In this document: positions 16,901 to 47,850 of the stretch, in pieces
How the letters are laid out: every line of letters starts with the position of its first letter
How positions within the stretch are numbered: position 1 is the stretch's first letter
Assembly: GCF_016446395.1 (NCBI RefSeq)
Contig: NZ_CP051168.1
Span: forward strand, 3,564,787 to 3,621,578
DNA from: [Phormidium] sp. ETS-05
GTDB taxonomy: Bacteria; Cyanobacteriota; Cyanobacteriia; Cyanobacteriales; Laspinemataceae
Direction: 5' to 3'
DNA: 56,792 nucleotides
Program-made: the position numbers and the translations under genes
Notes under the pieces: model-generated
Databases searched by the model: none
The model's input: the letters and a program-made list of their open reading frames with translations, nothing else
What the model was told of the DNA's origin: nothing

Positions 16901-17905
16901 CCCGAAATTTACCCGAATCCCTTTCAGGGATTGAAACTAACTGGTAATGGCAACAATCACAGCAACCAAAGTATCCCGAAATTTACCCGAATCCCTTTCA
17001 GGGATTGAAACGAGTACCGTTGAAAATTCTCATTTCCTTTTCCTTTTTCCCCGAAATTTACCCGAATCCCTTTCAGGGATTGAAACAGCAGCTTCCCCAG
17101 AAAGCTACTATCTTCATTGCGGCCCGAAATTTACCCGAATCCCTTTCAGGGATTGAAACCTCATCTCCCCCCCACACCAGGGCTATGCTTGCCCCTCCCA
17201 GTCCCCCGAAATTTACCCGAATCCCTTTCAGGGATTGAAACTTTAATTTTGCAATCAGCGGGACGTTAACGCGAACCTGCCCGAAATTTACCCGAATCCC
17301 TTTCAGGGATTGAAACATCATTGCTGCACAAATGTCAACGCTAATAACTTTTTCCCGAAATTTACCCGAATCCCTTTCAGGGATTGAAACTAACTATTGC
17401 CTTTACCGTAGTCTTCATGTTTGAGAACCCGAAATTTACCCGAATCCCTTTCAGGGATTGAAACTCGGCAGTCGCTAGGACTTGGCCGAATCGATCGGCG
17501 CCCGAAATTTACCCGAATCCCTTTCAGGGATTGAAACCAGTCATCGCGATCGCCGAAAGCTGCTTCGACAATGAACCCGAAATTTACCCGAATCCCTTTC
17601 AGGGATTGAAACCGAAAAACCAGATCAGATATTGTGTCGTTTTCTTCCCGAAATTTACCCGAATCCCTTTCAGGGATTGAAACGTGGATGTTGGCTCTGC
17701 CCAACCCTCCACATAAAAAAGCCCGAAATTTACCCGAATCCCTTTCAGGGATTGAAACGTGCTGTGGGTGGGGAGTGAGCTTGCCCTGATGTTCTATCCT
17801 CGAAATTTACCCGAATCCCTTTCAGGGATTGAAACGCCCTGCTTTGAAATCTGTAACATCATTCAAAACCGGAAATTTACCCGAATCCGTGAAAGGGATT
17901 GAAAT
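16901..17905 (+). CRISPR. CRISPR array 1: 14 repeats of 37 bp (CCCGAAATTTACCCGAATCCCTTTCAGGGATTGAAAC), 13 spacers of 33-45 bp
   Basis: Repeat starts at 16901, 16975, 17050, 17123, 17205, 17280, 17354, 17428, 17501, 17576, 17647, 17722, 17799 (one mismatch) and 17869 (degenerate terminal repeat ccggaaatttacccgaatccgtgaaagggattgaaat). The 3' end ATTGAAAC matches the canonical 8-nt crRNA handle. Leader is on the 5' side. Confidence 0.95.
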
Positions 17906-17980: not shown

Positions 17981-18053
<73 letters not shown>

Positions 18054-18064
18054 TTAACTTTCTC

Positions 18065-18093
18065 ATGCTTAATTAGCATAACTCAATAATTCC
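18065..18093 (-). promoter_or_regulatory. Putative sigma70-type promoter of tRNA-Phe (-35 TTGACA, 17-nt spacer, -10 TATGCT)
   Basis: The minus-strand sequence TTGACAagctggaattattgagtTATGCT ends about 12 nt upstream of the tRNA 5' end. Confidence 0.45.
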
Positions 18094-18152
18094 AGCTTGT
18101 CAACCCCTATTTCAAAAAATTTTTTGGGGGGATGCTGAGCCTAGAACTACAC

Positions 18153-18204
<52 letters not shown>

Positions 18205-27364: not shown

Positions 27365-27450
27365 TTACTGGTTATTTGTCACTGGTGATTTGTCATTTGT
27401 CCTTTGTCATTTGAGGCAGAACAAGTGACAAAGGACAAATGACAAAGGAC
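27365..27450. repeat. Dyad-symmetric heptamer repeat block
   Basis: tttgtcactggtgatttgtcatttgtcctttgtcatttgaggcagaacaagtgacaaaggacaaatgacaaaggacaaa. Confidence 0.85.
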
Positions 27451-27459
27451 AAACTGCAA

Positions 27460-28454: not shown

Positions 28455-30635
28455 ATGGGAGATTACTACTGCACCCTCAAGCCAGTTTATTCCTGCCCCG
28501 CCACTAAGTTGCCCGCAGGAGTCAAACTGCCTCCTGGCTGGACTTTAGCTTGGCACCAGGCAGCCACCTTAGAGGCAGTGCGCGACCCGAATATCGATGT
28601 AATTATCAATATAGCCCTGACGGGGGATGGTAAAAGTCTATCCGCTTATCTGGACAGTATGCAAGGACACAGCTACGCGCTGGGACTTTATCCCACCAAC
28701 GAGCTGGCGCGGGACCAGGAGGGGCAGGTGAGAAGATATATCGAGGAATTCCAGCCACCTGGAGAACCGCGAGTGTCCCGGTTGAGCGGCCCGGAATTAG
28801 AAATTTATGCGGAAAATGAGGGATTAAGGAAAGCAGCAGCATTGGATTCTAGGTCTTCAAATTCAGAAATTTTATTGACCAATCCCGATATTTTCCACTA
28901 CCTCCATCGTGGGGCTTACTTAACTCTTAATGATACCCCAGATAAGCTGTGGAACCGAATTGATAAGGATTTTAACCTGTTCATTTTTGATGAATTTCAC
29001 ACGGCGAGTGCGCCGCAAATTGCCGGTATAATCAACACCATGCTGCTGATTCGCTGTACTAATCGCCAGAAAAAATTTCTGCTGATGTCAGCGACGCCAA
29101 ATGACCGATTAATCGAGCGATTGCAAGCGGCGGGGTTTCGGTGTCGGATAATTAATCCCCTACAGGAGAGAAAATATCAGTTTCCTGATTCTGCGGGGCG
29201 GGAAAATGAGTTAAAATTGCAGAATTGGCGGCAAGTATCGCGGCAAATTTCTCTCGAGTTTATTTCTTTAGAACCGACGGCAAAGGCTACGGAAACTTGG
29301 GTGAAAGAAAATGGCAATCTGATTTTGCGTCATTTTCAGGAATATCCGGGGAGCAAAGGGGCAATTATCCTTAATTCTATTGCGGCGGTGAAGCGGTTAG
29401 TGCCGAGGTTGCGAGATTTGCTGTCACCCCACGGTTTGGTAGTGGGGGAGAATACGGGTTTATCGGGGAAGGGGGAGAAGGAGCGATCGCTCGCCGCTGA
29501 CCTCGTAATTGGCACCAGCACTATTGACGTGGGGGTAGATTTCAAAATTAATTTTCTCATATTTGAATCCGCCGATGGGGGTAACTTTATTCAGCGGTTG
29601 GGAAGGTTGGGACGACATGACGGCTACGAACGCAATGGGGAGAAAATTGCCTTTACCAATTTCACCGCTTATGCTTTAGTCCCTAATTTTTTATTGGAGC
29701 GGCTGTTTTTGGGGAATCATCCGCCCCTGCAGTCTGGGGGAATGTACGATCGGCCCTACTTCCACCAGCAAATCAGCGACAAATATCGCCAAATCAACGA
29801 CTTTGAGGGATATTACTCCCGCTGGGGGTTGGTGCAATCATGCTTGCTGGATTCCCAGCTCAAGCATATCACAATTAAAAAGGGCTACGCCAGCAGTCGG
29901 GAGGAATTTAGCACTACTTGCCAGCGGGTATTTAAGAAAAGTTTGGGTAAAGCATATGGACAGATAAAACAATGGAATCAGGAGTGGCAAGAGCTATCCG
30001 GTCAAAAAAGCACTTCTCCGATTGTTGAAGATGCTGCCAGTTTCCGGGGAACCAGTCCGCTCCAGTGTGGTTTATACGATTTGACTGAGGCAGCGGCGAC
30101 AGACCGGTTTAAAACCTATGATTTATCGGGAATTTTGAGCAATCTGGAAATTGAACCGATAACTAAAGTGGAGTTTATGCGCCTGCTAGAGGAGACGGAA
30201 AAAACCACGGGACAACCTATTGCTAAAGGTCGATTTAATGGCTGTCTCGCTTTTATGAAATTGCGCGCTTATCGAGAGGAGCGGTTCAACTGGCAATTTA
30301 CTTATGCAGGTGATTTGCGGCCATTAGCTAGTGCTTGGAGGGTGCAAGTGTTGACGGGGATTCAGGTTTGGCAACCGGAGAATTACTGGATTAATGAAAT
30401 TAATCAGCTCTTGAAAAAGCAAGGGTTAGTGAGCTACGTGGTCCGCCATCCGGTGGGGGAGGTACGATCGCGCCTCCGCCTCCCCATGCACTTTCAGATT
30501 TACCCCATGAGCGATCGAGCCAGTTTGCACGACCGCACGGCCCCCTACTCCGTAGCCTTCGGTCAGTCGGCCCTATTACTGGACACCCTGACCCACTGGC
30601 TCAAAAGCATAGGGGGCGATATATGGATTTCCTAG
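28455..30635 (+). CDS. cas3': Cas3' superfamily-2 helicase (type I-D; no HD domain)
   Basis: Walker A ALTGDGKS. DExH box LFIFDEFH. Helicase C-terminal motifs. No HD motif, which sits instead in the downstream large subunit, as expected for type I-D. Confidence 0.75.
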   Translation: MGDYYCTLKPVYSCPATKLPAGVKLPPGWTLAWHQAATLEAVRDPNIDVIINIALTGDGKSLSAYLDSMQGHSYALGLYPTNELARDQEGQVRRYIEEFQPPGEPRVSRLSGPELEIYAENEGLRKAAALDSRSSNSEILLTNPDIFHYLHRGAYLTLNDTPDKLWNRIDKDFNLFIFDEFHTASAPQIAGIINTMLLIRCTNRQKKFLLMSATPNDRLIERLQAAGFRCRIINPLQERKYQFPDSAGRENELKLQNWRQVSRQISLEFISLEPTAKATETWVKENGNLILRHFQEYPGSKGAIILNSIAAVKRLVPRLRDLLSPHGLVVGENTGLSGKGEKERSLAADLVIGTSTIDVGVDFKINFLIFESADGGNFIQRLGRLGRHDGYERNGEKIAFTNFTAYALVPNFLLERLFLGNHPPLQSGGMYDRPYFHQQISDKYRQINDFEGYYSRWGLVQSCLLDSQLKHITIKKGYASSREEFSTTCQRVFKKSLGKAYGQIKQWNQEWQELSGQKSTSPIVEDAASFRGTSPLQCGLYDLTEAAATDRFKTYDLSGILSNLEIEPITKVEFMRLLEETEKTTGQPIAKGRFNGCLAFMKLRAYREERFNWQFTYAGDLRPLASAWRVQVLTGIQVWQPENYWINEINQLLKKQGLVSYVVRHPVGEVRSRLRLPMHFQIYPMSDRASLHDRTAPYSVAFGQSALLLDTLTHWLKSIGGDIWIS

Positions 30636-30637
30636 AA

Positions 30638-30748
30638 AGTCAATCCCTGAAAGGGATTCAACACACTGGTTATCAGTGGGAGGGCATTAGCCCGCAAGAG
30701 CGATGTACGAAATTTCAATCCCTGAAAGGGGTTCGAGTAATTTTTGCC
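30638..30748 (-). repeat. Degenerate two-repeat CRISPR mini-array in antisense orientation inside the cas operon
   Basis: 30712-30747 tttcaatccctgaaaggggttcgagtaatttttg matches the reverse complement of the array repeat at about 30 of 36 positions. 30638-30664 keeps the core caatccctgaaagggattc (19 of 19). The 74-bp spacing equals one repeat-spacer period. Confidence 0.6.
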
Positions 30749-30789
30749 CTCCTCCTCAATCATACAGCAAAAAGTCCCAAAAATTTACT

Positions 30790-30826
30790 TGTCTTCATAC
30801 ATTGTTCTTTAGTGCTGTGTATAATG
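30790..30826 (+). promoter_or_regulatory. Putative extended -10 promoter (TGTGTATAAT) upstream of the small ORF and the toxin-antitoxin pair
   Basis: gtgctgtgtataatgg at 30813-30826. Lies inside the cas operon, downstream of cas3'. Confidence 0.4.
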
Positions 30827-30957
30827 GAGGTGGTGGCGTCAGCCCGCAAGAACAAAGGCCGAAATTCGTTGGAACTGGCTAAGTGCCCTTCTGACGCTTT
30901 CATACCTTACTAAGCCAGGAGCGACCACCATAACCATCCCGGTGGAGGTTCCCATCA

Positions 30958-31146
30958 ATGATTGCATATCAGCAACTAGAACTTTTTGATACTCGCCCTT
31001 ACACATCGGAGCAGCCTATTGCGATCGATAAGGAGGAAGAGCCAGTTACAGTGACTCCCCAAATGGAGCATAAACAGCTAGAACTCAATTTGTTTCCACA
31101 AAAGTCTCATAATACTCCCCTGGAGTGGTTGAGCTTAGCTGCCTAA
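30958..31146 (+). CDS. Small hypothetical protein (62 aa) with a strong SD (GGAGG, 9 nt spacer)
   Basis: MIAYQQLELFDTRPY... No known motif. Well-placed ribosome-binding site. Confidence 0.4.
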   Translation: MIAYQQLELFDTRPYTSEQPIAIDKEEEPVTVTPQMEHKQLELNLFPQKSHNTPLEWLSLAA

Positions 31147-31246
31147 TTTTCCAAGGGGGCTACGACTAAATTAAAATCAAAAGCCCCCTGGCTTCTCAAC
31201 ACTGTATATATGCAGTTTTTCATCTTGGTGAGTTCCAGAGTTTTCC

Positions 31247-31702
31247 ATGAATACAGGCGCAGAAAAATCAACAGATATCACTAATCTTGCCGTCCAACTG
31301 CCAGAAAAATTTCAACACCTAAAAATGCTGGTGCTGTTTGGTTCCAGAGCCAGAGGTGATTTTCGTCCAAACAGTGATTGGGACTTTGCCGCTGTCTATG
31401 ATGAAGCGATTTATCAAAATTTGACAGAAAATCCGTTTGCCGTGTTTGAAATTTCGGGAATTATCAGTAATTTGTTAAATATTCCCGAATCTAAAATAGA
31501 TGTGATAGACTTAGGTAGATGTTCCGCGCTTTTGGCTCACTACGTCGCTCGTGACGGTAAAGTTTTGTATGAACAAGAACCGGGGCAGTTTGAGCAATTC
31601 CGCCGTCAGGCCCTCAAGAGTCACGCTGAAATGAAAGCAACTTACCAAAGCCTGCGCGCCAAACTTGATGAGAGGTTGCAAAATTGGGGTTATGACGATT
31701 GA
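31247..31702 (+). CDS. Nucleotidyltransferase-domain protein (MntA-like antitoxin of a HEPN/MNT pair)
   Basis: LVLFGSRARGDFRPNSDWDFAAVYD is a minimal NTase fold (GS...D.D). The 3' end overlaps the next ORF by 11 nt. Confidence 0.6.
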   Translation: MNTGAEKSTDITNLAVQLPEKFQHLKMLVLFGSRARGDFRPNSDWDFAAVYDEAIYQNLTENPFAVFEISGIISNLLNIPESKIDVIDLGRCSALLAHYVARDGKVLYEQEPGQFEQFRRQALKSHAEMKATYQSLRAKLDERLQNWGYDD

Positions 31703-32132
31703 AAAATATATAGTTATAGCAAAAATAGATTTGATGGGCAAGTATTTGGAACGATTGCAGCGGTTTGAATCTGTGACCTTAGAACAATACCTCAATGATG
31801 GGGATATGCAGTTGGTCGTAGAAAGACTATTACAGCTAATCATTCAAATGGCGATCGACCTGAATCGGTACTTTTTGAAAGAATTAGGGATTGACCAACC
31901 AGAAACCAACGCTGAAGCATTCCACGCCGTCAGCCAATGTGGCATTATTCCCGATAATTTAGCCAAAAACATCGCTGGTTCGGTCAGCTTGCAAAATCGT
32001 TTGGTTCACGGCTATGATACAATCGATAGTGTTATCGTGCATGGTAGCATCAAGAAAGTATTGCAGTATTTTCCCATGTATCAAAAACAAGTCGGCAATT
32101 ATTTGGATTCTTTGGAGGACAAAAATGGCTAG
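31692..32132 (+). CDS. HepT-like HEPN-domain protein (DUF86-type toxin)
   Basis: The C-terminal NRLVHGYD fits the R-x2-H-x-Y part of the HEPN Rx4-6H motif. Size and tight coupling to the upstream NTase are typical of HepT/MntA modules. Confidence 0.5.
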   Translation: MTIEKYIVIAKIDLMGKYLERLQRFESVTLEQYLNDGDMQLVVERLLQLIIQMAIDLNRYFLKELGIDQPETNAEAFHAVSQCGIIPDNLAKNIAGSVSLQNRLVHGYDTIDSVIVHGSIKKVLQYFPMYQKQVGNYLDSLEDKNG

Positions 32133-35100
32133 AAAACGCAAGCAGCAAGATGAAGACAAGGAGCAGCAACTATCTTTATTTGATATTTTGCCCACGGCTC
32201 CCATATCTGAGCCGTCACATGATGATGATTCAGAGTTAGATGATAATGGGGATGATAGTGATTATGATGATGTGGAGCTTAGCTTTGACCCATCAGACCG
32301 AACCATAGAGCCAAAAGCGCCGGAGTTGCTGACGCTGAAACTGCTGCGAAAAGCTATTCTCGCGCAAAATCCCGATGATGCAGTGATGGAAGATTTCGCC
32401 GAATATGTGTTACCAAACCTGCTGCGAGTTGCCATCGCCGTCACCGCCAAAGGGGGTAAGTTTTTTGATAAACTTGATGCCCAGCGGCTGGCTGCAGGAA
32501 AGCCAAAACCTCGGCGTGATAATGCGGCTGACCAGTCGCTAAATAGTCATTTACTCAATGGCATATTTCCGGCGAATTTAATTGAGCAACGCCTGGAAAA
32601 GCTCGATACTACAGTGCGGCGATGCGTCAGGGAGCGGGAGCGCCGGTTACTAATTGCTGGGTTTATTCTCCACGACTTTGAGAAGTTTAATTATGACATA
32701 TTGCCCCAAATGCCCCAGAAATATCGGGACATTAGCAATAGCCAAAATCAGAAGATTCGGGACTTATCTGTGGCGGAACATCGGGAGATTGTGCAGGTCA
32801 TCGCTGATGAATTGCATCTGGGGCAGTTGATAGACCCGGAAAACCCAGAAGCATATCAGGAATATTTGGATGATTTGCTCGTTTTGGCGTATAATGCCCA
32901 GGTGCGGGAGGATACGAATTGGAATTTTTCGGTAGCGCACGGACTGCAGCCGGTATTGGACGATCGCACCCTCCGCTGTCTCGCTGCACTCACTTGCTTG
33001 GCAGATTCCTTTGCCTCAATTATCAAACACCCTCAAGATGCTGAACATAGGCGGTTTCAAGAACTATTACACAGTCTTAGTGATGGCCAACTAAAGCTAA
33101 GCTATCACGGCTTGACCGAAAATCGGGGAGTGTTGACAAACGCCGTGAATAACTCCCTCATCGAGGCTCACACCGCACTCAATACAAAAAACTGCACCTA
33201 CTATGAACCCCTGTTGTATTTGCCAACTGGTGTCATCTACTTGGCGCATAGAAATGCGCCACCAGTGCGGCTGGAAGACTGCCCCGAAAAAGTTGTCAGC
33301 CAGATTAAAAAACTCTGCGCCGGTCAGTTACGCGACAGACAAACCGGTTTTGGCCGCGATGGCAAAGGCATGAAATATGCCGAATATTATAACCTATTTT
33401 TTGACGATGTGGAGTTGATGCAAGTAGCTCTTAATGCCACCATGCGGATTTTGCCTAAAGGCAAATCTTCCGTAGCCCAAGACCGCAGCGACAATCTGAT
33501 AAAATTTCAGAAACAGGGGGTCTTACCCGCCGATTGGGATTTCCAGTTTGCCAACGATATCCGCATCGACCAACTGGCAGAATTTGGCGACCTAGTGAGC
33601 CGGAAAATTTGGGGCGATCGGGTCAGCAAAATTGAAAATTTCCGCAAACAAGACAAAAAAAATAAAAACCTGCCCCCAGTTCCCCCCTTGCAGATTATCG
33701 AAGAAGTTGCTAAACTATGGCAACTGTCGGATTATCTGCCCCAAATTCGGGAAATCCAGCGGCTGAATGAAAGGCTGAAGGAAAATAAGCTCAAAGGTAA
33801 CACTGGCGGCATACCCTACGAATGGTATTATTTAGCTGCCAAGTATCTAGAACGGCACCCAGGAGTTGAGGAGGTGCGGGAGATTTGCCAGCAAGCAATA
33901 GCACATATTGCCCAACTGATTCGACCCATCACCGCTCAGTATCAACTCCCCGATGGTTGGGAAGACTTGTGCCTATGGGTGCAGCGAGTTATCATACTCC
34001 CCAGCCAGCCAGAGTCCAACGCATCATTAGCAGTATTTGCCGATGAATTCCAGCGCTACATGATGGCGAAAAAATCTGGGCGAGGCAGGCAGTTAATCTG
34101 CTCAATTTCTCATTCCGCTTACACGGTGACAGAGCAAATGGAGTCAGCGGTTTTGTTTACCCCCCAGGTTTATACTAACAAACAAATGCTGGGAGGTTCT
34201 AACGCCAAGCGCAATATCTCCAGTATTGCCGGTATCGAGATGATGCTACGGCAAATCTTGATGAACCAAACCCAGGCGGTGGGCAAGAATTTTGAGGATG
34301 GCAAGTATCGTTATCTGTATTTCTATCCTACTTATTACTTCACCCCAGAAACTAACAAGTTTTTGCATCAAGCCTACACCGATATCGCCCAAACTCGTTT
34401 TACGCCTACTCTGCGCAATCACTTTATTAGCTCGGATTTGCAGGCAGATTTTACCAAAACCCGCTACCAAACTGTTGATAGTTTTTTGCTGGATGAAGCT
34501 ATTAAACCAGAAAAAGACCGCACATTTAAACTGTCTTATCCAGAAGACTTGCCCGTAACGTTTTACTTTATGGCACTGCCCACGCCGAAAAAAAGTAAAG
34601 ACCACAAACCCACGGATACGGAATCTTGGATTATGCCAGCTTGGTTGGCGTTTGCTTTCCCCATCATTATCGATGTGAAAACTGCGGTGTCTGAGTCTCC
34701 CATTCCGCCTTTTACTGATGGGGCGGAGTTTGAGGAAAGCGTATTTCTGGACAGTCCACCCCCAGCATTCCGGGTTTTGACCCAGCGCGATCGCTTCCGC
34801 ATTGACTACATCCTAGAAGGTTGGCAAGAAAACGGCAAGGAATATCCCTCACCTTTGAATGTCCTCACCGCCGCTTATGCCATTCATCTCGACGTGAATG
34901 CTCGCCAAGGCAAAAAAGGTTATGATGCCAACTGGGGTAAATTTGCCGAGTTAGCCACGGATTTTGAAACCAGCCCCCTCTCCGTATTTACTTATCTCAG
35001 TAAGTGGGGACGCCGCCAAGAAGCTGAAACCGCCAGCATTAAGAAAATTAAGCTCTATGCTTATCAATTTTACCCCTGTTTTGACCCCTACGTTCAATTT

Positions 35101-35631
35101 AAACCAGAATCGGAGGAATTAATTGTGGACGAAAAATCGCCATTACACCACCCCAAGCGATTGACCGAACTCTATCGCCAATTTTACCGAGCCAACAAGT
35201 TGTATAATCCTAAAGCTAACGCCGTGCTAAAACCCATTGATATTGCTGCCGATGTAATTCTCAAAGTTGACCCCTGTTTTTCGGGCGAAGCTCTCCCCGA
35301 TATGGTCGCTGCGGAAATCTGTAAACTGATGGATCGGGTTCACAGTTCCACCGCCGAAGGGCGTTGGGTATTTAAACGCGATGAACGAGAGCAAGAACGG
35401 GAAAAAATCGCCGAATTCGCTGCCTACTTTGTCCACGAGGTATTTGAGAATTCTTTTGGGGGCGATCGCGCCCGTTTAGCCGGACGACAACTAAACTACC
35501 TCCGCGACACCTGCGAATACCTGTATCGCTTAGAAAACGACAAAGAAATCCGCGCCAAAAAAGAACAATCCCCAGATAATGCGGAGGATAATTTTGACAA
35601 CGAAGAGGAAACAGAAGATGAAACACCATAA
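32125..35631 (+). CDS. cas10d: Cas10d large subunit (type I-D) with an N-terminal HD nuclease motif
   Basis: 1168 aa from the ATG at 32125 (GGAGGA SD), which overlaps the hepT stop. HD motif LIAGFILHDFEKF. Size and its position before csc2/csc1/cas6d are diagnostic of I-D. Confidence 0.7.
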   Translation: MARKRKQQDEDKEQQLSLFDILPTAPISEPSHDDDSELDDNGDDSDYDDVELSFDPSDRTIEPKAPELLTLKLLRKAILAQNPDDAVMEDFAEYVLPNLLRVAIAVTAKGGKFFDKLDAQRLAAGKPKPRRDNAADQSLNSHLLNGIFPANLIEQRLEKLDTTVRRCVRERERRLLIAGFILHDFEKFNYDILPQMPQKYRDISNSQNQKIRDLSVAEHREIVQVIADELHLGQLIDPENPEAYQEYLDDLLVLAYNAQVREDTNWNFSVAHGLQPVLDDRTLRCLAALTCLADSFASIIKHPQDAEHRRFQELLHSLSDGQLKLSYHGLTENRGVLTNAVNNSLIEAHTALNTKNCTYYEPLLYLPTGVIYLAHRNAPPVRLEDCPEKVVSQIKKLCAGQLRDRQTGFGRDGKGMKYAEYYNLFFDDVELMQVALNATMRILPKGKSSVAQDRSDNLIKFQKQGVLPADWDFQFANDIRIDQLAEFGDLVSRKIWGDRVSKIENFRKQDKKNKNLPPVPPLQIIEEVAKLWQLSDYLPQIREIQRLNERLKENKLKGNTGGIPYEWYYLAAKYLERHPGVEEVREICQQAIAHIAQLIRPITAQYQLPDGWEDLCLWVQRVIILPSQPESNASLAVFADEFQRYMMAKKSGRGRQLICSISHSAYTVTEQMESAVLFTPQVYTNKQMLGGSNAKRNISSIAGIEMMLRQILMNQTQAVGKNFEDGKYRYLYFYPTYYFTPETNKFLHQAYTDIAQTRFTPTLRNHFISSDLQADFTKTRYQTVDSFLLDEAIKPEKDRTFKLSYPEDLPVTFYFMALPTPKKSKDHKPTDTESWIMPAWLAFAFPIIIDVKTAVSESPIPPFTDGAEFEESVFLDSPPPAFRVLTQRDRFRIDYILEGWQENGKEYPSPLNVLTAAYAIHLDVNARQGKKGYDANWGKFAELATDFETSPLSVFTYLSKWGRRQEAETASIKKIKLYAYQFYPCFDPYVQFKPESEELIVDEKSPLHHPKRLTELYRQFYRANKLYNPKANAVLKPIDIAADVILKVDPCFSGEALPDMVAAEICKLMDRVHSSTAEGRWVFKRDEREQEREKIAEFAAYFVHEVFENSFGGDRARLAGRQLNYLRDTCEYLYRLENDKEIRAKKEQSPDNAEDNFDNEEETEDETP

Positions 35632-38484: not shown

Positions 38485-39070
38485 TATTGATTATATTCCC
38501 ATTGCGGCGCTGAATCAATATGCTTACTGCTCTCACCGCTGCTGGCGGATGTTTTGCGCTGGGGAATTTGTGGATAATCATTATACCATTGAAGGCACGA
38601 GTTTGCATAGTCGGGTTCACAGTTTTGGCGAAGGTATCCGGGAAGATGTGGAGCAAATTCGCGCCATTTGGCTGAAGTCGGAGCAGTACAAGTTGATTGG
38701 TAAATCGGATTTGATTGAAACTGTGGATGGGGAGTGGTATCCCGTGGAATATAAACGGGGACGCAAGGGAGAATGGGATAATGATGAGTTGCAGGTAGCA
38801 GCCCAGGCTTTATGTTTGGAAGAAATGACGGGTAAAACCATTACTGGCGGCTATATTTATTATGCCAGTTCTTACCAGCGGCAGTTGGTGGAAATTTCCC
38901 CAGAATTGCGGGGGCAGACTCTGGCAACTATTGCGGAAGTTGCCAAGTTATTCGCGACGGGGGCAATGCCGAAACCTACTTATAATCCCCGTTGTCGTGG
39001 GTGCAGTTTGTCTGCTGCTTGTTTGCCCCAAGCTGCCGCGAAAATTGGTCGTTATCAAGAATTGAATTAG
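38477..39070 (+). CDS. cas4: Cas4 (RecB-like nuclease with a four-Cys cluster)
   Basis: Start at the ATG at 38477, overlapping the cas6 end. N-terminal Cys (YAYCSHRCW) and C-terminal CRGCSLSAAC form the Fe-S cluster ligands. Confidence 0.8.
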   Translation: MLDIDYIPIAALNQYAYCSHRCWRMFCAGEFVDNHYTIEGTSLHSRVHSFGEGIREDVEQIRAIWLKSEQYKLIGKSDLIETVDGEWYPVEYKRGRKGEWDNDELQVAAQALCLEEMTGKTITGGYIYYASSYQRQLVEISPELRGQTLATIAEVAKLFATGAMPKPTYNPRCRGCSLSAACLPQAAAKIGRYQELN

Positions 39071-39146
39071 TCATTGGTCATTGGTCATTAGTCCTTTGTC
39101 TTTTGTCTGATAAAAGTAGTAGGTGGGCATTGCCCACCCGACAAAA
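39061..39146. repeat. TTGGTCA/TTTGTCT heptamer tract plus a copy of the GTAGGTGGGCATTGCCCACCC palindrome
   Basis: tcattggtcattggtcattagtcctttgtcttttgtc ... agtaggtgggcattgcccacccgac. Confidence 0.8.
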
Positions 39147-40179: not shown

Positions 40180-40185
40180 GGGTTG

Positions 40186-40265
40186 GTCATTGGTCATTGG
40201 TCATTGGTCATTTGTCCTTTGTTTGGATAGAACAAGGGACAAATGACAAGGGACAAAGGACAAAG
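40186..40265. repeat. Dyad-symmetric heptamer repeat block
   Basis: ttggtcattggtcattggtcattggtcatttgtcctttgtttggatagaacaagggacaaatgacaagggacaaaggacaaagg. Confidence 0.85.
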
Positions 40266-40286
40266 GAAATCAGTTTAGGAGTGGTT

Positions 40287-40816: not shown

Positions 40817-43800
40817 CCCGAAATTTACCCGAATCCCTTTCAGGGATTGAAACCTCCGCAAATACAATTACTCATCCCCTGCTCGCTGTACCCGAAATTT
40901 ACCCGAATCCCTTTCAGGGATTGAAACTGGAGGAGGCATACCTCTGGTAATTTCGATCACCCTCCCGAAATTTACCCGAATCCCTTTCAGGGATTGAAAC
41001 CTGGATATCCAGGGATTGGGCGGGGATGAAAACCGTCCCGAAATTTACCCGAATCCCTTTCAGGGATTGAAACCCCCCCGTGCTAATTAGTCTCCGGTGG
41101 TGTAGCTCCCGAAATTTACCCGAATCCCTTTCAGGGATTGAAACCTCAGAGATGAGGAGGAAAAGGCCCAGAAGTTGGGCAAACCCGAAATTTACCCGAA
41201 TCCCTTTCAGGGATTGAAACTCTGAATACCAGACAGTCACATGCTGATATCCCTTGGACCCCGAAATTTACCCGAATCCCTTTCAGGGATTGAAACCAAG
41301 CTCACATCAAGAAACTGGCTTTCGATTATGACCCGAAATTTACCCGAATCCCTTTCAGGGATTGAAACGACTAGCAGGCAAAGCCTTAATCCCATTGCCT
41401 TTGGACCCGAAATTTACCCGAATCCCTTTCAGGGATTGAAACCATTCCCACCACTGAAGTACCTCCCAGTCGGGGAAACCCGAAATTTACCCGAATCCCT
41501 TTCAGGGATTGAAACTCATCCCAGGATTCTTTTGGTGGTTCCATTCCATACCCGAAATTTACCCGAATCCCTTTCAGGGATTGAAACTAAGAAACAACGT
41601 GCCGGGGAGAGGGGAGCGATCGCCCCGAAATTTACCCGAATCCCTTTCAGGGATTGAAACAAAAAATGTCCCCACGGCGTCGGGGGAGGCAAAGGGGCCC
41701 GAAATTTACCCGAATCCCTTTCAGGGATTGAAACTTTGAGGCTGTCGAGCCTCAACACCACCGCCGTATCCCCGAAATTTACCCGAATCCCTTTCAGGGA
41801 TTGAAACCTTTGGGGGCTTCTCTTTCTCCTAGGACTGCGCCGTGCCCGAAATTTACCCGAATCCCTTTCAGGGATTGAAACATTGTTGGCCCACTCCCCC
41901 CACTCAAACTGTAGTCGGCCCGAAATTTACCCGAATCCCTTTCAGGGATTGAAACAAGGCTGGCGTGACGGCTAAATTTGGCGGTTTCCGCCACCCGAAA
42001 TTTACCCGAATCCCTTTCAGGGATTGAAACGCGTCCCCGATGCCGGCCCCCATCACGGGCCCCTATTTCCCGAAATTTACCCGAATCCCTTTCAGGGATT
42101 GAAACTTGAGAAGTATCTGATAAATCGCTAAATAATGCGACCCCCGAAATTTACCCGAATCCCTTTCAGGGATTGAAACACACGGTTTTTGGTGGTGTCA
42201 CATAGGGACTACATACCCCGAAATTTACCCGAATCCCTTTCAGGGATTGAAACATGGTATAATCCCGTTAGCAGATAGACTAAAAAGCGGCCCGAAATTT
42301 ACCCGAATCCCTTTCAGGGATTGAAACGGGGGGACTTTGTTTTTTGTTACGGGAATCAAACATCCCGAAATTTACCCGAATCCCTTTCAGGGATTGAAAC
42401 TTAAAGACGGTGAGGAATTTTTCATCCGAGCATCAAACCCGAAATTTACCCGAATCCCTTTCAGGGATTGAAACGAGCAACAACCCAATCAACCAGATTC
42501 GCCATACTTTCCCGAAATTTACCCGAATCCCTTTCAGGGATTGAAACCTCACTTTGCCCCATCTGCAGCTGGCGACGAGCCGCACCCCCCGAAATTTACC
42601 CGAATCCCTTTCAGGGATTGAAACGCGCTTCATTTCTAGTTCGCGCTTTACCCAATACCACAGCCCGAAATTTACCCGAATCCCTTTCAGGGATTGAAAC
42701 TAAATTCCCACGGTGTTTCACCTACAGGCGATCGCCCGCCCGAAATTTACCCGAATCCCTTTCAGGGATTGAAACATCACCTTGGGTAGCGATGACCTGC
42801 CCCCGCAAAAAGAAGCCCGAAATTTACCCGAATCCCTTTCAGGGATTGAAACCATTAATTTCGGCGTCGAAATTCCCACGGTGGTTCCCGAAATTTACCC
42901 GAATCCCTTTCAGGGATTGAAACCAGTCAATTGAACTAGCTTTAACAACAGGCGACAACATCCCGAAATTTACCCGAATCCCTTTCAGGGATTGAAACAG
43001 GATGACGGTGTTGGGGGGGACCCCCTCAGGTATGGGTCCCGAAATTTACCCGAATCCCTTTCAGGGATTGAAACAAATTTCCCGTCGTGGCCGCGCTTCA
43101 TTTCTAGTTCGCCCCGAAATTTACCCGAATCCCTTTCAGGGATTGAAACACATCATCTAACTTGTTTGAGGGGGAGACAGCAACAAAGCCCGAAATTTAC
43201 CCGAATCCCTTTCAGGGATTGAAACTAATAGATAGTGCGGACATATCCGCATATACCCTTCCCCGAAATTTACCCGAATCCCTTTCAGGGATTGAAACTC
43301 GGAAAAAGTCCGAGCCACAGTGCCGGTCGCGGTAGCGCCCGAAATTTACCCGAATCCCTTTCAGGGATTGAAACTAGTCGTACTGATTGATAGTCCCCAC
43401 AATTGATGGTGTCCCGAAATTTACCCGAATCCCTTTCAGGGATTGAAACAGCAGTAAGGGCAGACTTGATGGCCTCAGCCTTGGTGCCCCGAAATTTACC
43501 CGAATCCCTTTCAGGGATTGAAACTGGTTTCCCTTCGTGAGGCGATCGCGCAGATACCGGATCCCGAAATTTACCCGAATCCCTTTCAGGGATTGAAACC
43601 CAACCTAGAACAAGTTTCAGTAACTCCATCAACCGACCCGAAATTTACCCGAATCCCTTTCAGGGATTGAAACCCTTTACGTTTATCCCTGCCAAGATTG
43701 CGGATAACCAAGCCCGAAATTTACCCGAATCCCTTTCAGGGATTGAAACTCTCCAGTCTGGCATCCCGCCAAGACCACACCCACCCGAAATTTACCCGAA

Positions 43801-45442
43801 TCCCTTTCAGGGATTGAAACCAGTTATCGGGCCGGCCTTCAACCATTCCTAGAGGCCTCGAAATTTACCCGAATCCCTTTCAGGGATTGAAACCTCAGCT
43901 CCGTCTAATTTGTACCACAAATCAAACACCCGAAATTTACCCGAATCCCTTTCAGGGATTGAAACTATTTGCCCTGACTCATAAGCCACAATGCCATCAG
44001 ATCCCGAAATTTACCCGAATCCCTTTCAGGGATTGAAACAGTCTCTGTGGCTCCAGCGCAGCCACTGCCACGACTCCCGAAATTTACCCGAATCCCTTTC
44101 AGGGATTGAAACCTTATGGGATAGTGTGTACGCCATAAGAAATAGTGTACCCGAAATTTACCCGAATCCCTTTCAGGGATTGAAACTGCATCCGAGTAGT
44201 GACTGCTTGGTATTGTCCCACCACCCGAAATTTACCCGAATCCCTTTCAGGGATTGAAACATCGGCGAAACAACTCTGTGGCAGCTTTGCCTGTACCCCG
44301 AAATTTACCCGAATCCCTTTCAGGGATTGAAACGGCCATTCTTTATCGTCTGGCGCTTTACGAAGGTTGGCCCCGAAATTTACCCGAATCCCTTTCAGGG
44401 ATTGAAACGTACACCTGATTCTTGGCACGCCGAAATCGGCGAGCCCGAAATTTACCCGAATCCCTTTCAGGGATTGAAACAAGTTTTTTCTTTGGGTTTG
44501 TTTTTCTCCTTATTTGCCCCCGAAATTTACCCGAATCCCTTTCAGGGATTGAAACCGCGTAGCTTCTCACCCACGATTTGAAGTGTGAGCGATCCCCGAA
44601 ATTTACCCGAATCCCTTTCAGGGATTGAAACTCATTAAAAGCGACTGCATTTATCTGGGCTGCTCTGTACCCGAAATTTACCCGAATCCCTTTCAGGGAT
44701 TGAAACTAATTTTCGGTGTAATTATCCTCCTATTTGTAAGCCCGAAATTTACCCGAATCCCTTTCAGGGATTGAAACAAATGTACTCATGTTTTTCCTCT
44801 CCTATTTTTAGCCCGAAATTTACCCGAATCCCTTTCAGGGATTGAAACTTGCAGTTCGCCAAACAGGCCATTCGCTGTCCCCTCCACCCCGAAATTTACC
44901 CGAATCCCTTTCAGGGATTGAAACAAACCAGTCTATATTTGTGCCTTGCACCTGCTGGATAAGTCCCCGAAATTTACCCGAATCCCTTTCAGGGATTGAA
45001 ACCTTACTCTGATTGTTGGTATTAAGCTGATTAAGACCCGAAATTTACCCGAATCCCTTTCAGGGATTGAAACTGCAAATATTGAGGCTTCATCTAGCAG
45101 ATAAATCACCCGAAATTTACCCGAATCCCTTTCAGGGATTGAAACATATTCAGGAAAGCGGTAGGCGCGCAAACGCCTGCCGACCCGAAATTTACCCGAA
45201 TCCCTTTCAGGGATTGAAACATATTCAGGAAAGCGGTAGGCGCGCAAACGCCTGCCGACCCGAAATTTACCCGAATCCCTTTCAGGGATTGAAACCAAGG
45301 TAAACACAGATGTATCGTTATTTCACCGCATGCACCCGAAATTTACCCGAATCCCTTTCAGGGATTGAAACACATACCCCACAAATATGCGGTTCATTCA
45401 GCCGTCCCGAAATTTACCCGAATCCCTTTCAGGGATTGAAAA
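40817..45442 (+). CRISPR. CRISPR array 2: about 63 repeats of the same 37-bp repeat, about 62 spacers of 34-40 bp
   Basis: Regular period of about 74 bp from 40817. Terminal repeat (45406-45442) ends ...GATTGAAAA. One internal variant repeat (about 43857, cTcgaaattt). One duplicated repeat-spacer unit (45146-45258). Confidence 0.95.
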
Positions 45443-45443
45443 T

Positions 45444-47850
45444 TCAGGAAATAGGGACGATACAGTGGGGAAATTGGCTTTTTAATGCCGGAATCACTGG
45501 ACAAGGAGCTTGAGTTTCGGTTGATTCGGGTTTAGTCCAACTAAAAGGGGCGTTCTTAGCTGCTGACATCCACAGCAAACGTTTTGCTCGGGTCATCGCC
45601 ACATAAAGTAACCGGTATTCTTCCGCAGTTTTCAGGTCTTGAGCTTGTTTCCAGGCAGTTTCTGGGTCGGGTAGTTCTTTCCCGTGCAGGTGGGCGCGAA
45701 TTTGCGCCCTCGCTACTTCGGCGAGGGAATATTCCCCCAGAAATTGTCTGGGTGGGGGCACCCAAAGATTACCAGGGATAACCTTTTCATGCAAAAAAGG
45801 GAGAAACACCCAGTCCCAGTCCAGTCCTTTGGCTTTGTGCATGGTGATGATGGTGAGGCGACCTTTTTTGGTGTAAACAGACTCGTGGGGGTCTTCTTCT
45901 GTATCCACCGGCTCGAATTTTTCGGTGTTGACAATTTCCTCGAGCAGTTCTAAAACGGCGGTGAGGGAATGTTGGCGATAGGTTTGCCTGGAGACTCGAT
46001 CGGCCACTTTATCGGCGGTAGCGAGTTCGGCGGGGCTGTAGTTCAGATTAAAAGCGATCAAGGATATGAGCTGATATAGGGGGACTTCTAGGCGTCCGTG
46101 GAGGAGGTTGATGCAAAACTGGCGGGCTTGGTTGACAGTTTCTGACTGTTTTGGGTCTAGGGGTCCGGGGTAGAGGAATTGTTCGGGGGCAGCGGCGAGG
46201 GCGTTGGTGTCTAGGGAGGCAATGATATTTCTATCGATGAAGACTCGCAAGGCGGCTTTCAGGTAGTCGGGGGAATGGGGGCGGTGGAGAAATTGCAGGA
46301 TAGCGAGGAGTTCGGCGGGGACTTGGGAACGTCGATCGCCCCCGCCACTTCATATACTTCTATCCCCTGCTGCGCCAAATTAACTTTAATGTTGTAACTC
46401 TCTGGGTTAGCCAGGATATCGGCGATAAATTTCCCCTGGCGGTTTTCCCGTACCAACACGGCAGCCGATCGGTCTTTCTCCCGCCCAAATAACTCTACCA
46501 CCCGCCGTCCTATCAACTCCACCGTATGATAAATATCTCTGGGAGTGTAAATTTCCAATCCCAACCCCGTGGGAGCCGGGTTAGCATCTTTTGCGGGTCT
46601 CCCGCTGACACAGATTTAATATCCTGCGGCTCAAACGGCGTCTCGCGTTTTGTATTTGAATTATCTTTTCTGTTTAGCTCGCGGCTCCTACCCCCGCCCA
46701 GATAATTATCTCCCTCATCGCTGATTTTCGCCCTGCGATTATTTACCCAATGCAGCATAAAATTAGCCGCATCAATAATAATTTGGCTACTGCGTCCCGC
46801 CCTATCCATACGAGCAAACCGGCCTTCCTTTTGGCATTCCTCACAGAAACGGCGAAAATAAATCGGGTCAGCGGGAGTAAAAGTAGAGTTAATCGCTTGA
46901 TTCGGGTCGCCAACCCGGATTAAATTAGGTGGGGCATCGGGATTTTCCGGGTCAGTGGCGAGGATTTCTAGGAGTTTGGTTTGTAACGGGGTCGAGTCTT
47001 GGGCTTCATCTTCAAACACAGCCAAAATTTTCTGCTGCCAAATTTTCCTCGCTTCCGGGTTATCTAAAACCCGCTCACCGGCGATAATCATATCATCATA
47101 ATCAATAACCTGTCTGGCTCTGAGGAGATTTTCGTATTCTGTATAAAGTCCCGCCGCAATTTCCATAACTTGATACTCATCTGGGGGCACTTGTGCCGCC
47201 AACTCCCGCAACTTCCCTGGCAATAAACCGGAAGATTTCGCCTCGTGAATGACTGTAGTGGCCAATTCTGGTAAAACTTCTGTGCGTAATACAGACATCC
47301 GCCGCAGTCTTTCCGTCTCTTCCCCGTCAAAATTAATTTCTACCAGTAATTGATAGTGGCGGGGATGGGCTGTTATCCACTTTTCCACGCAAGTTTTGAT
47401 TAATTGATTGCTCTTGTTGGGTGAGATTACAGTTACTTCCTCGGAACTGATACCGGAGATTTGGGGATGTTGGACAGCAATATGGAACGCTAAACCGTGG
47501 AGGGTATAGACAAAAAACCCCCTTGGTGGTACGAGCAACTGTTTAAGGGCTTCTCGGATTTTAGCTTTGATGTTAGCAGCAGCCGATCGGGTAAAAGTCA
47601 CCACAACCAAATCCCCCTGAGAAGAGAAACCCGACAAATTTCTCGCCGCCAGGGTAAGAGCCGCCGCATCCGCCATCCCCTTAGACTTTCCCGCTCCGGG
47701 AACGGCAGAAACTGCCAAAGGACCACCCCGCCAGTCCGCCATCTCTCGCTGTCCAGAACGTAACCCCTCCCGCAGGCGTTGTTTCGCCTGCTCCCGCTGT
47801 GCTTCTAATGTCAATTTGTCTTTTGTCACTTGTCCTTTGTCCTTTGTCAC
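45444..47850 (-). pseudogene. UvrD/PcrA-like superfamily-1 helicase, fragmented into three ORFs (45444-46250, 46259-46564, 46513-47850) plus an uncovered gap
   Basis: N-terminal Walker A AVSAVPGAGKS and a VFEDEAQD motif. C-terminal TIITMHKAKGLDWDWVFL (UvrD_C). Frame changes at about 46255, 46565 and 46690, and the ORF C-termini read as out-of-frame garbage. Confidence 0.6.

Follow-up and report, generated by a model that had tools for sequence, protein, structure and literature searches.

Introduction

Type I-D CRISPR loci in which a mini-array follows cas3 and has the reverse direction of transcription were described by Shmakov et al. 2023 (bioRxiv 10.1101/2023.03.03.530964, clade of Figure 6A). 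In that preprint, the stretch from the mini-array to cas10d holds toxin–antitoxin genes, regulators and further genes, the mini-array targets fall in the promoters of this cargo, and gene shuffling has a hot spot in the cas3–cas10d region. Here, we analyse a locus of this kind in [Phormidium] sp. ETS-05, namely positions 30958-32132 of a window of 56,792 nucleotides (nt), the window being the whole stretch of DNA analysed; this part carries the genes orf62, mntA and hepT between cas3' and cas10d. The locus fits every point of the I-D description given above, the layout is already published, and the window is an ordinary addition to a known architecture. The published study is computational and, as far as its accessible text goes, names neither this strain, nor the orf62 family, nor variants with a dead toxin. 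The explanation that best covers the whole locus, and that we consider likely, is that the space between cas3' and cas10d is a cargo bay under the control of the CRISPR complex.

A comparable arrangement exists in the CreTA/CreR systems (haloarchaeal type I-B; autoregulation in types I-B, I-E and V-A), which likewise contain a degenerate two-repeat mini-CRISPR inside the cas operon, with a spacer partly complementary to a promoter site flanked by a protospacer-adjacent motif (PAM), Cascade being the repressor. The window shares this layout in its sequence, with Cascade as a putative repressor, but differs in belonging to subtype I-D and in that the putatively repressed genes are protein-coding (orf62, MntA/HepT and possibly Cas10d), where CreTA has the small CreT RNA.

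The mntA-hepT pair also has described counterparts. The HEPN–MNT system of Aphanizomenon flos-aquae (PDB 7AE2, 7AE6, 7AE8 and 7AE9; Songailiene et al. 2020, Mol Cell) has the same gene order, the same GSX10DXD motif and the same HepT His and Tyr as the window, and since AfHEPN and AfMNT are 70-78% identical to the pairs that occupy the same cas10d-abutting slot in I-D loci of Nostocales, this solved system is an orthologue of the in-operon lineage. The window pair is 44-45% identical to it, and has Gln where AfHEPN has R102. The Aphanizomenon HepT reportedly cleaves the 3' end of tRNA and is di-AMPylated at Y109. The HepT/MntA pair of Shewanella oneidensis (SO_3166/SO_3165; PDB 5YEP and 6M6U) belongs to the same Pfam families and carries the RX4HXY and GSX10DXD motifs that define such pairs; it is distant, not linked to CRISPR and forms a 2:6 complex, and the window proteins match it weakly but significantly (E 3e-5 and 2e-4).

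Pairs of the HEPN–MNT kind from this very slot are already solved and characterised, and the pair by itself adds little. The locus and its 80 relatives do form a clean comparative set, with a fixed cargo order, a linkage between spacer class and first gene, and target mismatches at positions 6 and 12 as is typical of type I, through which the idea that CRISPR guards its own cargo becomes directly testable in a type I-D system. This set also singles out the orf62 family as an uncharacterised gene sitting under putative Cascade control.

Results

A degenerate CRISPR-like mini-array follows cas3'

The initial annotation placed three open reading frames (ORFs) on the + strand between cas3' and cas10d, with coordinates that stand, and overlooked a mini-array at 30637-30748. 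The features at this end of the gap are the following, class A denoting the orf62-type loci:

28455-30635, + strand: cas3', helicase (PF00270 DEAD, E 2e-11; PF22590 Cas3-like_C_2)
30637-30673, - strand: psiR2, distal degenerate repeat; its core AGTCAATCCCTGAAAGGGATT differs from the repeat core at 3 positions, and only the hairpin and GAUUGA are kept
30674-30711, - strand: psiS, spacer of the mini-array, in CRISPR RNA (crRNA) sense 5'-TTCGTACATCGCTCTTGCGGGC...
30712-30748, - strand: psiR1, proximal degenerate repeat, 30/37 bases matching the CRISPR repeat of the locus
30759-30764, - strand: TATGAT, candidate -10 box of the mini-array transcript, in a block conserved in class-A loci (TATAAT in the L011 group)

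The mini-array begins 2 nt past the cas3' stop codon with psiR2, which retains the 7-bp stem of the canonical repeat, and its two repeats are spaced by 75 nt, the normal length of a CRISPR unit. psiR1, the upstream repeat, is the better preserved of the two; it is the sole match to the repeat outside the arrays on both strands of the window, keeps the repeat hairpin in weakened form and would supply the 5' handle AUUGAAAU. The TATGAT hexamer may belong to the promoter of the mini-array. The predicted mini-array transcript (30637-30752, minus strand) folds back from its 5' end, GGAGGGCA, onto the 3' portion of its spacer, UGCCCUCC; the z-score of this fold is -3.6, and 0/200 shuffles fold as well.

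A scan based on Cas10d yielded 80 related loci from filamentous cyanobacteria (labelled L001-L080, with the close relatives L081-L083), to which Cas10d of the window is 62-72% identical. The cas3'–cas10d gap was compared across 77 related loci and the window (78 in total), with cas3' of the window being 63-71% identical to those of the 77. Of the 78 loci, 61 have the repeat pair and a further 14 have one repeat, such that the mini-array's position is conserved in 75/78.

The spacer partly matches a PAM-flanked site at the putative cargo promoter

Downstream of the mini-array, three features precede the cargo genes:

30791-30829, + strand: PAM GTC (30791-30793) and partial protospacer T1 (30794-30829), overlapping the putative cargo promoter
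30820-30825, + strand: TATAAT, candidate -10 box of the cargo promoter, preceded by TGTG; the block TGTGnTAnnnT is conserved in class-A loci
30832-30863, + strand: T2, second, inverted psiS-like site without PAM, 23/32 nt identical to psiS on the + strand

The minus-strand start of psiS, 5'-TTCGTACATCGCTCTT, corresponds to the + strand sequence GTC-TTCATACATTGTTCTT (30791-30809), 82 nt away. T1 matches psiS at 13 of the first 16 nt, including 8/10 seed positions, and then diverges, with 60 non-cognate spacers reaching at most 7 in the T1 seed; the published I-D PAM is GTN. The 36-nt T1 site covers the TATAAT at 30820-30825, which we infer to be the -10 box of the cargo promoter. In a consensus scan of the gap for promoters and terminators, hits were no more numerous than in shuffled sequence, and this TATAAT was not called because no -35 box is present; an Rfam search of the gap returned no match.

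Cognate sites flanked by GTT or GTC recur in 13/15 unrelated spacer classes, 80-250 nt downstream and on the + strand except in one class. Across these classes, 8-10/10 seed positions match, mismatches usually fall at positions 6 and 12, and the sequences diverge after about 16-21 nt. For the 12 classes with 9-10/10 seed matches, non-cognate spacers score about 5.5 on average and almost never equal the cognate score, and for the L025/L031 class (8/10), 2/59 non-cognate controls exceed it. Mismatches at every sixth position are tolerated by Cascade, and partial, seed-first pairing is the signature of repressor RNAs of the CreA/CreR type. Spacer and site also vary together: among class-A loci, each spacer matches its own site at a mean of 12.6/16 positions as compared to 10.2 across loci, and psiS of the window matches the sites of other loci at 6-9/16 positions and its own at 13/16. 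These comparisons indicate that the window spacer and T1 have drifted together away from the class-A consensus.

T2 is found in all class-A loci, with 22-25/32 identical positions (shuffle mean near 15.7). It lies in the presumed mRNA leader, just 3' of the -10 box, and forms an imperfect palindrome with T1 and a predicted leader hairpin. The direct repeat 30683-30714 / 30835-30866 (T2) was rejected as a DNA target of Cascade, its flank being AAT, ACT or AGT and never GTN across all class-A loci; following this rejection, a PAM-anchored search located T1 in the other strand sense. T2 being inverted, the psi RNA would be complementary to the presumed mRNA leader. I-D Cascade is able to bind single-stranded RNA without a PAM in vitro.

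The gap holds shuffling cargo in a fixed order

Gap length varies between 69 nt and 3 kb across loci, and the order of the contents is fixed, leading from the mini-array and a single small gene through DUF433, which DUF5615 (PIN-like) may accompany, and then YhcG/DUF1016 or Uma2, to MNT, HepT and cas10d. The small first gene is orf62, a 65-aa (amino acid) helix-turn-helix protein (PADLOC PDLC01152, E 4e-27), or a protein of ~98 aa or ~161 aa, the last two of no recognised family. Spacer class is tightly linked to this first gene, each class travelling with one particular gene.

MNT followed by HepT stands directly against cas10d in 25/78 of the I-D loci, spans at least nine spacer classes and is always the cas10d-proximal element, a layout that is not sporadic. 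In Mantel comparisons with Cas10d distances, HepT gave rho 0.60 and MNT rho 0.68 (p about 0.001), with Cas3 at 0.91, and the evolutionary rate of the pair is about double that of the cas genes. The distance pattern of both proteins therefore points to largely vertical co-inheritance with some shuffling, and not to sporadic insertion.

Three close relatives show how modules come and go. L082 has the window layout, with the catalytic Arg of HepT intact. L081 lacks the segment equivalent to window 30660-31273 (spacer, psiR1, promoter and orf62), replaced by 68 nt (L081 5490-5583) with one hybrid repeat left, and keeps mntA-hepT-cas10d. L083 keeps orf62 and mntA, but where hepT would lie it has some 230 nt of sequence unrelated to it (L083 6562-7240). 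L081 and L083 are about 92-96% identical and differ by whole modules.

Such variability would also fit a hot spot permissive to selfish cargo, in which the repeats are a decayed, functionless array remnant and the pair is a passenger read through from the cas3' promoter. The range of gap sizes and the shuffling contents agree with this, as do the mntA-hepT-cas10d arrangement of L081, which manages without spacer or orf62, and a toxin that is decaying in the window and lost in L083. Were the array a neutral remnant, however, seed matches flanked by GTN and mismatched at 6 and 12 would not persist in 13/15 unrelated classes, nor would the array co-vary with its site, and the mini-array would not be expected to keep its position in 75/78 loci; we regard this explanation as quite unlikely.

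Putative repression of the cargo by Cascade

From the arrangement of spacer, PAM and -10 box, we consider it quite likely that Cascade represses the cargo promoter. The mini-array would be transcribed on the strand opposite cas3', and its transcript cut by Cas6 into a crRNA-like RNA. I-D Cascade loaded with this psi RNA would then recognise GTC at 30791-30793 and pair through the first ~16 nt over the -10 box, and, once on the cargo promoter, could act as a repressor in the manner of the CreA/CreR RNAs. The pairing is short, and binding without recruitment of Cas3' is therefore expected. The repressed unit would start with orf62 and probably continue by read-through via mntA and hepT into cas10d; were it to reach cas10d, the repression would amount to feedback on the large subunit of Cascade itself. 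Within the Aphanizomenon lineage, MntA reportedly AMPylates the Tyr of RX4HXY and thereby silences the tRNA-cutting HepT; in the window, HepT is likely inactive and the pair would be decaying.

orf62 is a conserved small gene under the putative control of the mini-array

The first gene behind the putative cargo promoter comprises the following features:

30958-31146, + strand: orf62 (WP_199245408.1), conserved small protein of 62 aa
30973-30990, + strand: orf62 motif QLELFD
31075-31098, + strand: orf62 motif QLELNLFP
31135-31143, + strand: C-terminal LAA of orf62
31151-31191, + strand: GC-rich hairpin after orf62 (-16.2 kcal/mol, z -2.75), not followed by a U-run

The near-consensus Shine-Dalgarno sequence previously assigned to the 62-aa ORF is present as GGAGG, 8 nt before the ATG. 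The accompanying statement that the protein has no recognisable family is right for Pfam, to which it has no match, and wrong in so far as the protein belongs to a conserved family: a profile search retrieved 138 clusters from one database and, from a second, 86 representatives, so that the family counts 86-138 sequence clusters or more. The homologues of named source are hypothetical proteins of filamentous cyanobacteria, nearly all of about 47-70 aa, and the longer ones look like over-extended ORF calls because only their C-terminal ~63 residues match. Searches of Pfam and PADLOC with orf62 gave no match, and RefSeq/UniRef name the product as hypothetical.

The reading frame is open over 62-64 aa in 15 loci, where nucleotide differences are most frequent at the third codon position (2891), followed by the first (2166) and second (1750). 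A spurious ORF is ruled out by the conserved length, this codon-position pattern and the 138 homologous clusters. Among the genes behind its own mini-array spacer class, orf62 invariably comes first. Its invariant residues are Q6, L9 and F10 (of QLELFD) and Q40, L45 and F46 (of QLELxLFP), and the LAA end is nearly always present. An AlphaFold model is mostly coil, with a mean predicted local distance difference test (pLDDT) score of 65 and a predicted template modelling (pTM) score of 0.16, and on this model orf62 is apparently disordered.

The stem of the hairpin at 31151-31191 is kept in L082 and L083, and the AAGGGGGCT block also occurs in the L011 group; the hairpin is a possible attenuator or transcript-end structure.

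A related motif is found at the N-terminus of Cas10d, where QQLSLFD follows a KRKRK patch (residues 15-20, 32167-32184). The tail motif QQLSL[F/L][D/E] behind a basic patch occurs in 49/78 Cas10d orthologues, with ~19 Nostoc-type loci starting later and without it. We take the orf62 and Cas10d-tail motifs to resemble beta-clamp-binding motifs, and the LAA end of orf62 presumably resembles an ssrA degron. It is conceivable, if quite improbable, that orf62 is the real effector of a Cascade-repressed cassette, a short-lived, disordered, clamp-binding protein that would accumulate upon loss or inhibition of Cascade, block the beta-clamp and arrest replication. QLSLF in the Cas10d tail may in that case be what docks I-D Cascade to the clamp, with orf62 as a possible competitor. 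If true, orf62 would be a protein counterpart of CreT and act as the SocB toxin does. A literature search for a link between Cas10d and the clamp found no paper.

mntA and hepT form a diverged HEPN–MNT pair overlapping cas10d

The remaining part of the gap is occupied by the pair, which runs into cas10d:

31247-31702, + strand: mntA (WP_199245409.1), MNT adenylyltransferase antitoxin (PF18765, E 5e-15; PF01909, E 2e-8)
31692-32132, + strand: hepT (WP_199245410.1), HEPN RNase toxin homologue of 146 aa (PF01934 HepT-like, E 1e-22)
32125-35631, + strand: cas10d, whose start overlaps the hepT stop by 8 nt; N-terminal tail KRK...QQLSLFD (32167-32184)

Both genes had been assigned to a HepT/MntA pair (HEPN/MNT) inside the I-D operon, and profile searches with PF01909 and PF01934 both match at scores that chance would not nearly reach, the latter covering 111/120 profile positions in HepT (E 1.2e-22); we consider the identity of the pair virtually certain, and its location inside the operon is as had been reported. 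RefSeq/UniRef likewise name a type VII HepT toxin and an MntA antitoxin. The mntA motif GSRARGDFRPNSDWD fits GSX10DXD (GS-RARGDFRPNS-DWD), such that the nucleotidyltransferase motif is intact. Amongst solved structures, the closest are the HEPN proteins of 7AE6/7AE9 (E 2e-32; HepT residues 3-145 against 7AE6) and the MNT protein 7AE2_B (E 1e-37). Its sequence places the window pair, as a diverged member, in the type VII HEPN–MNT lineage of Aphanizomenon flos-aquae.

The overlaps of 11 nt (mntA/hepT) and 8 nt (hepT/cas10d) read in the initial annotation are both found in the sequence. The antitoxin gene lies upstream, with its TGA stop at 31700-31702 and the hepT ATG at 31692; this overlap is 11 nt here as compared to 13 nt in most related loci. 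The hepT TAG stop is at 32130-32132 and the cas10d ATG at 32125, with GGAGGA, the ribosome-binding site of cas10d, inside hepT, 5 nt upstream of the cas10d ATG. The length of 155 aa given for the HEPN protein is that of the longest ORF, from a TTG at 31665, and is to be replaced by 146 aa: the 11-nt overlap fits the ATG form, which is also WP_199245410.1 in RefSeq.

The catalytic motif of HepT is broken in this strain

Class I HepT proteins are defined by RX4HXY, with GSX10DXD as the partner motif in MntA. What the initial annotation gave as R-x2-H-x-Y is an RX4HXY motif in broken form, Q-N-R-L-V-H-G-Y, the catalytic Arg being replaced by Gln; HEPN homology itself is confirmed (PF01934, E 1e-22), and it is the arginine of Rx4-6H that is missing (Q101). 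Gln101 is encoded by CAA (31992-31994), and the His and Tyr of RX4HXY are kept. Where the window has SLQNRLVHGY, its homologues have G/SLRNRLVH, with Arg in 22/25 I-D-linked homologues and in both close relatives with a hepT gene (96% and 92% identical). The difference is a single G>A base change, L081 and L082 having CGA and the window CAA; the third close relative, L083, has deleted hepT. Toxin decay is thus visible within one species cluster, as Arg>Gln here and as a deletion in one relative, with the gene intact in two others.

The PDB entries 7AE6 and 7AE8 carry Ala at the position equivalent to Q101, presumably the non-toxic variant. With Gln at the catalytic Arg, HepT is most likely dead or weakened, and, judging from this residue, we would on balance expect the toxin to be inactive in this strain. 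With HepT likely dead, mntA and hepT would be decaying cargo and not an active suicide arm.

Transcriptional and translational links between the pair and cas10d

The overlap geometry would allow translational coupling of hepT and cas10d. On this basis, the pair had been proposed to link an active HepT RNase to cas10d expression, as a backup abortive-infection arm or a regulator of Cas10d. Support for this idea comes from the recurrence of the 8-nt overlap, with the cas10d ribosome-binding site inside hepT, in 13/24 loci, from the co-inheritance of the pair with the cas genes, and from Arg-independent HEPN RNase activity, which exists in Legionella. Shmakov et al. propose that cargo toxins guard the locus or act upon effector inhibition. 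The arm is nonetheless unlikely to be active in this strain, as the Rx4-6H Arg is absent, two close relatives keep it and the third has lost hepT. Speaking against it more widely, the Gln for catalytic Arg being confined to this strain, are the dead motif in L024 and L054, alongside the deletion in L083, and the roughly two-thirds of related I-D loci that lack the pair and in which cas10d has its own start context. The co-expression of mntA is a further difficulty, in that plain derepression would lift the antidote along with the toxin. We therefore rate an active, translationally coupled arm as unlikely. With the mini-array and its PAM-flanked partial target at the putative cargo promoter, any functional link of the pair to CRISPR is more likely transcriptional than translational.

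L024 (9574-9990) and L054 (3663-4100) hold full-length HepT homologues with R>I and H>Y substitutions and no MNT gene, which abut cas10d. HepT could conceivably be retained for a non-catalytic role, by delivering ribosomes to the cas10d start or as a structural partner, with MntA and RNase activity being dispensable. Full-length, dead-motif hepT genes against cas10d in L024, L054 and the window would agree with such a role, as would the lack of excess non-synonymous change relative to close relatives. Against this, hepT is wholly lost in L083, most loci never had it, and the three dead-motif cases could equally be snapshots of recent decay, making a non-catalytic role very unlikely.

Several observations weigh against our preferred reading of a Cascade-controlled cargo bay holding a decaying toxin pair. 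L081 has mntA-hepT-cas10d without mini-array spacer or orf62, and as it keeps the pair without the spacer, the pair does not need mini-array control. The stable hairpin after orf62 could end the transcript before mntA, and in the window seed, positions 4 (where a G:T wobble is possible) and 10 do not match, making it weaker than in most loci. Concerning the toxin, synonymous and non-synonymous counts relative to close relatives, which are small, show no relaxed constraint on hepT, Q101 is read from one assembly, and the R98A and H103A substitutions in a Legionella HEPN protein had a negligible effect on RNase activity.

The surrounding type I-D operon and arrays

The operon continues 3' of cas10d with csc2 (cas7d), csc1 (cas5d) and cas6, and also includes cas4, cas1 and cas2, giving a complete type I-D set; Cas3, Csc2 and Cas6 were called by Pfam, and Csc1, Cas4 and Cas1 in the near-identical L082. 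A gene for a WYL/WCX-type regulator lies upstream of the cas genes.

The main CRISPR array (40817-45442) has 63 repeats, and a second array (16901-17905) has 14 copies of the identical 37-nt repeat, the last two being degenerate. Spacers of the main 4.6-kb array were searched for PAM derivation, giving 0 matches in phages and, in plasmids, matches to other CRISPR arrays only. The second array lies 11 kb upstream of the cas operon and is followed by two minus-strand tRNA genes (17981-18204). Beside the end of the main array, a UvrD-like helicase is split on the minus strand into an N-terminal domain (46513-47850) and a C-terminal domain (45444-46250), and may be a frameshifted pseudogene (45444-47850). 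Heptamer tandem repeats of the TTGTCAC/GACAAAG type occur in many intergenic spaces (e.g. 39066-39107, 40183-40267 and 27367-27453), including the cas4/cas1 and cas1/cas2 gaps inside the cas operon and the space beside the WYL-type regulator.

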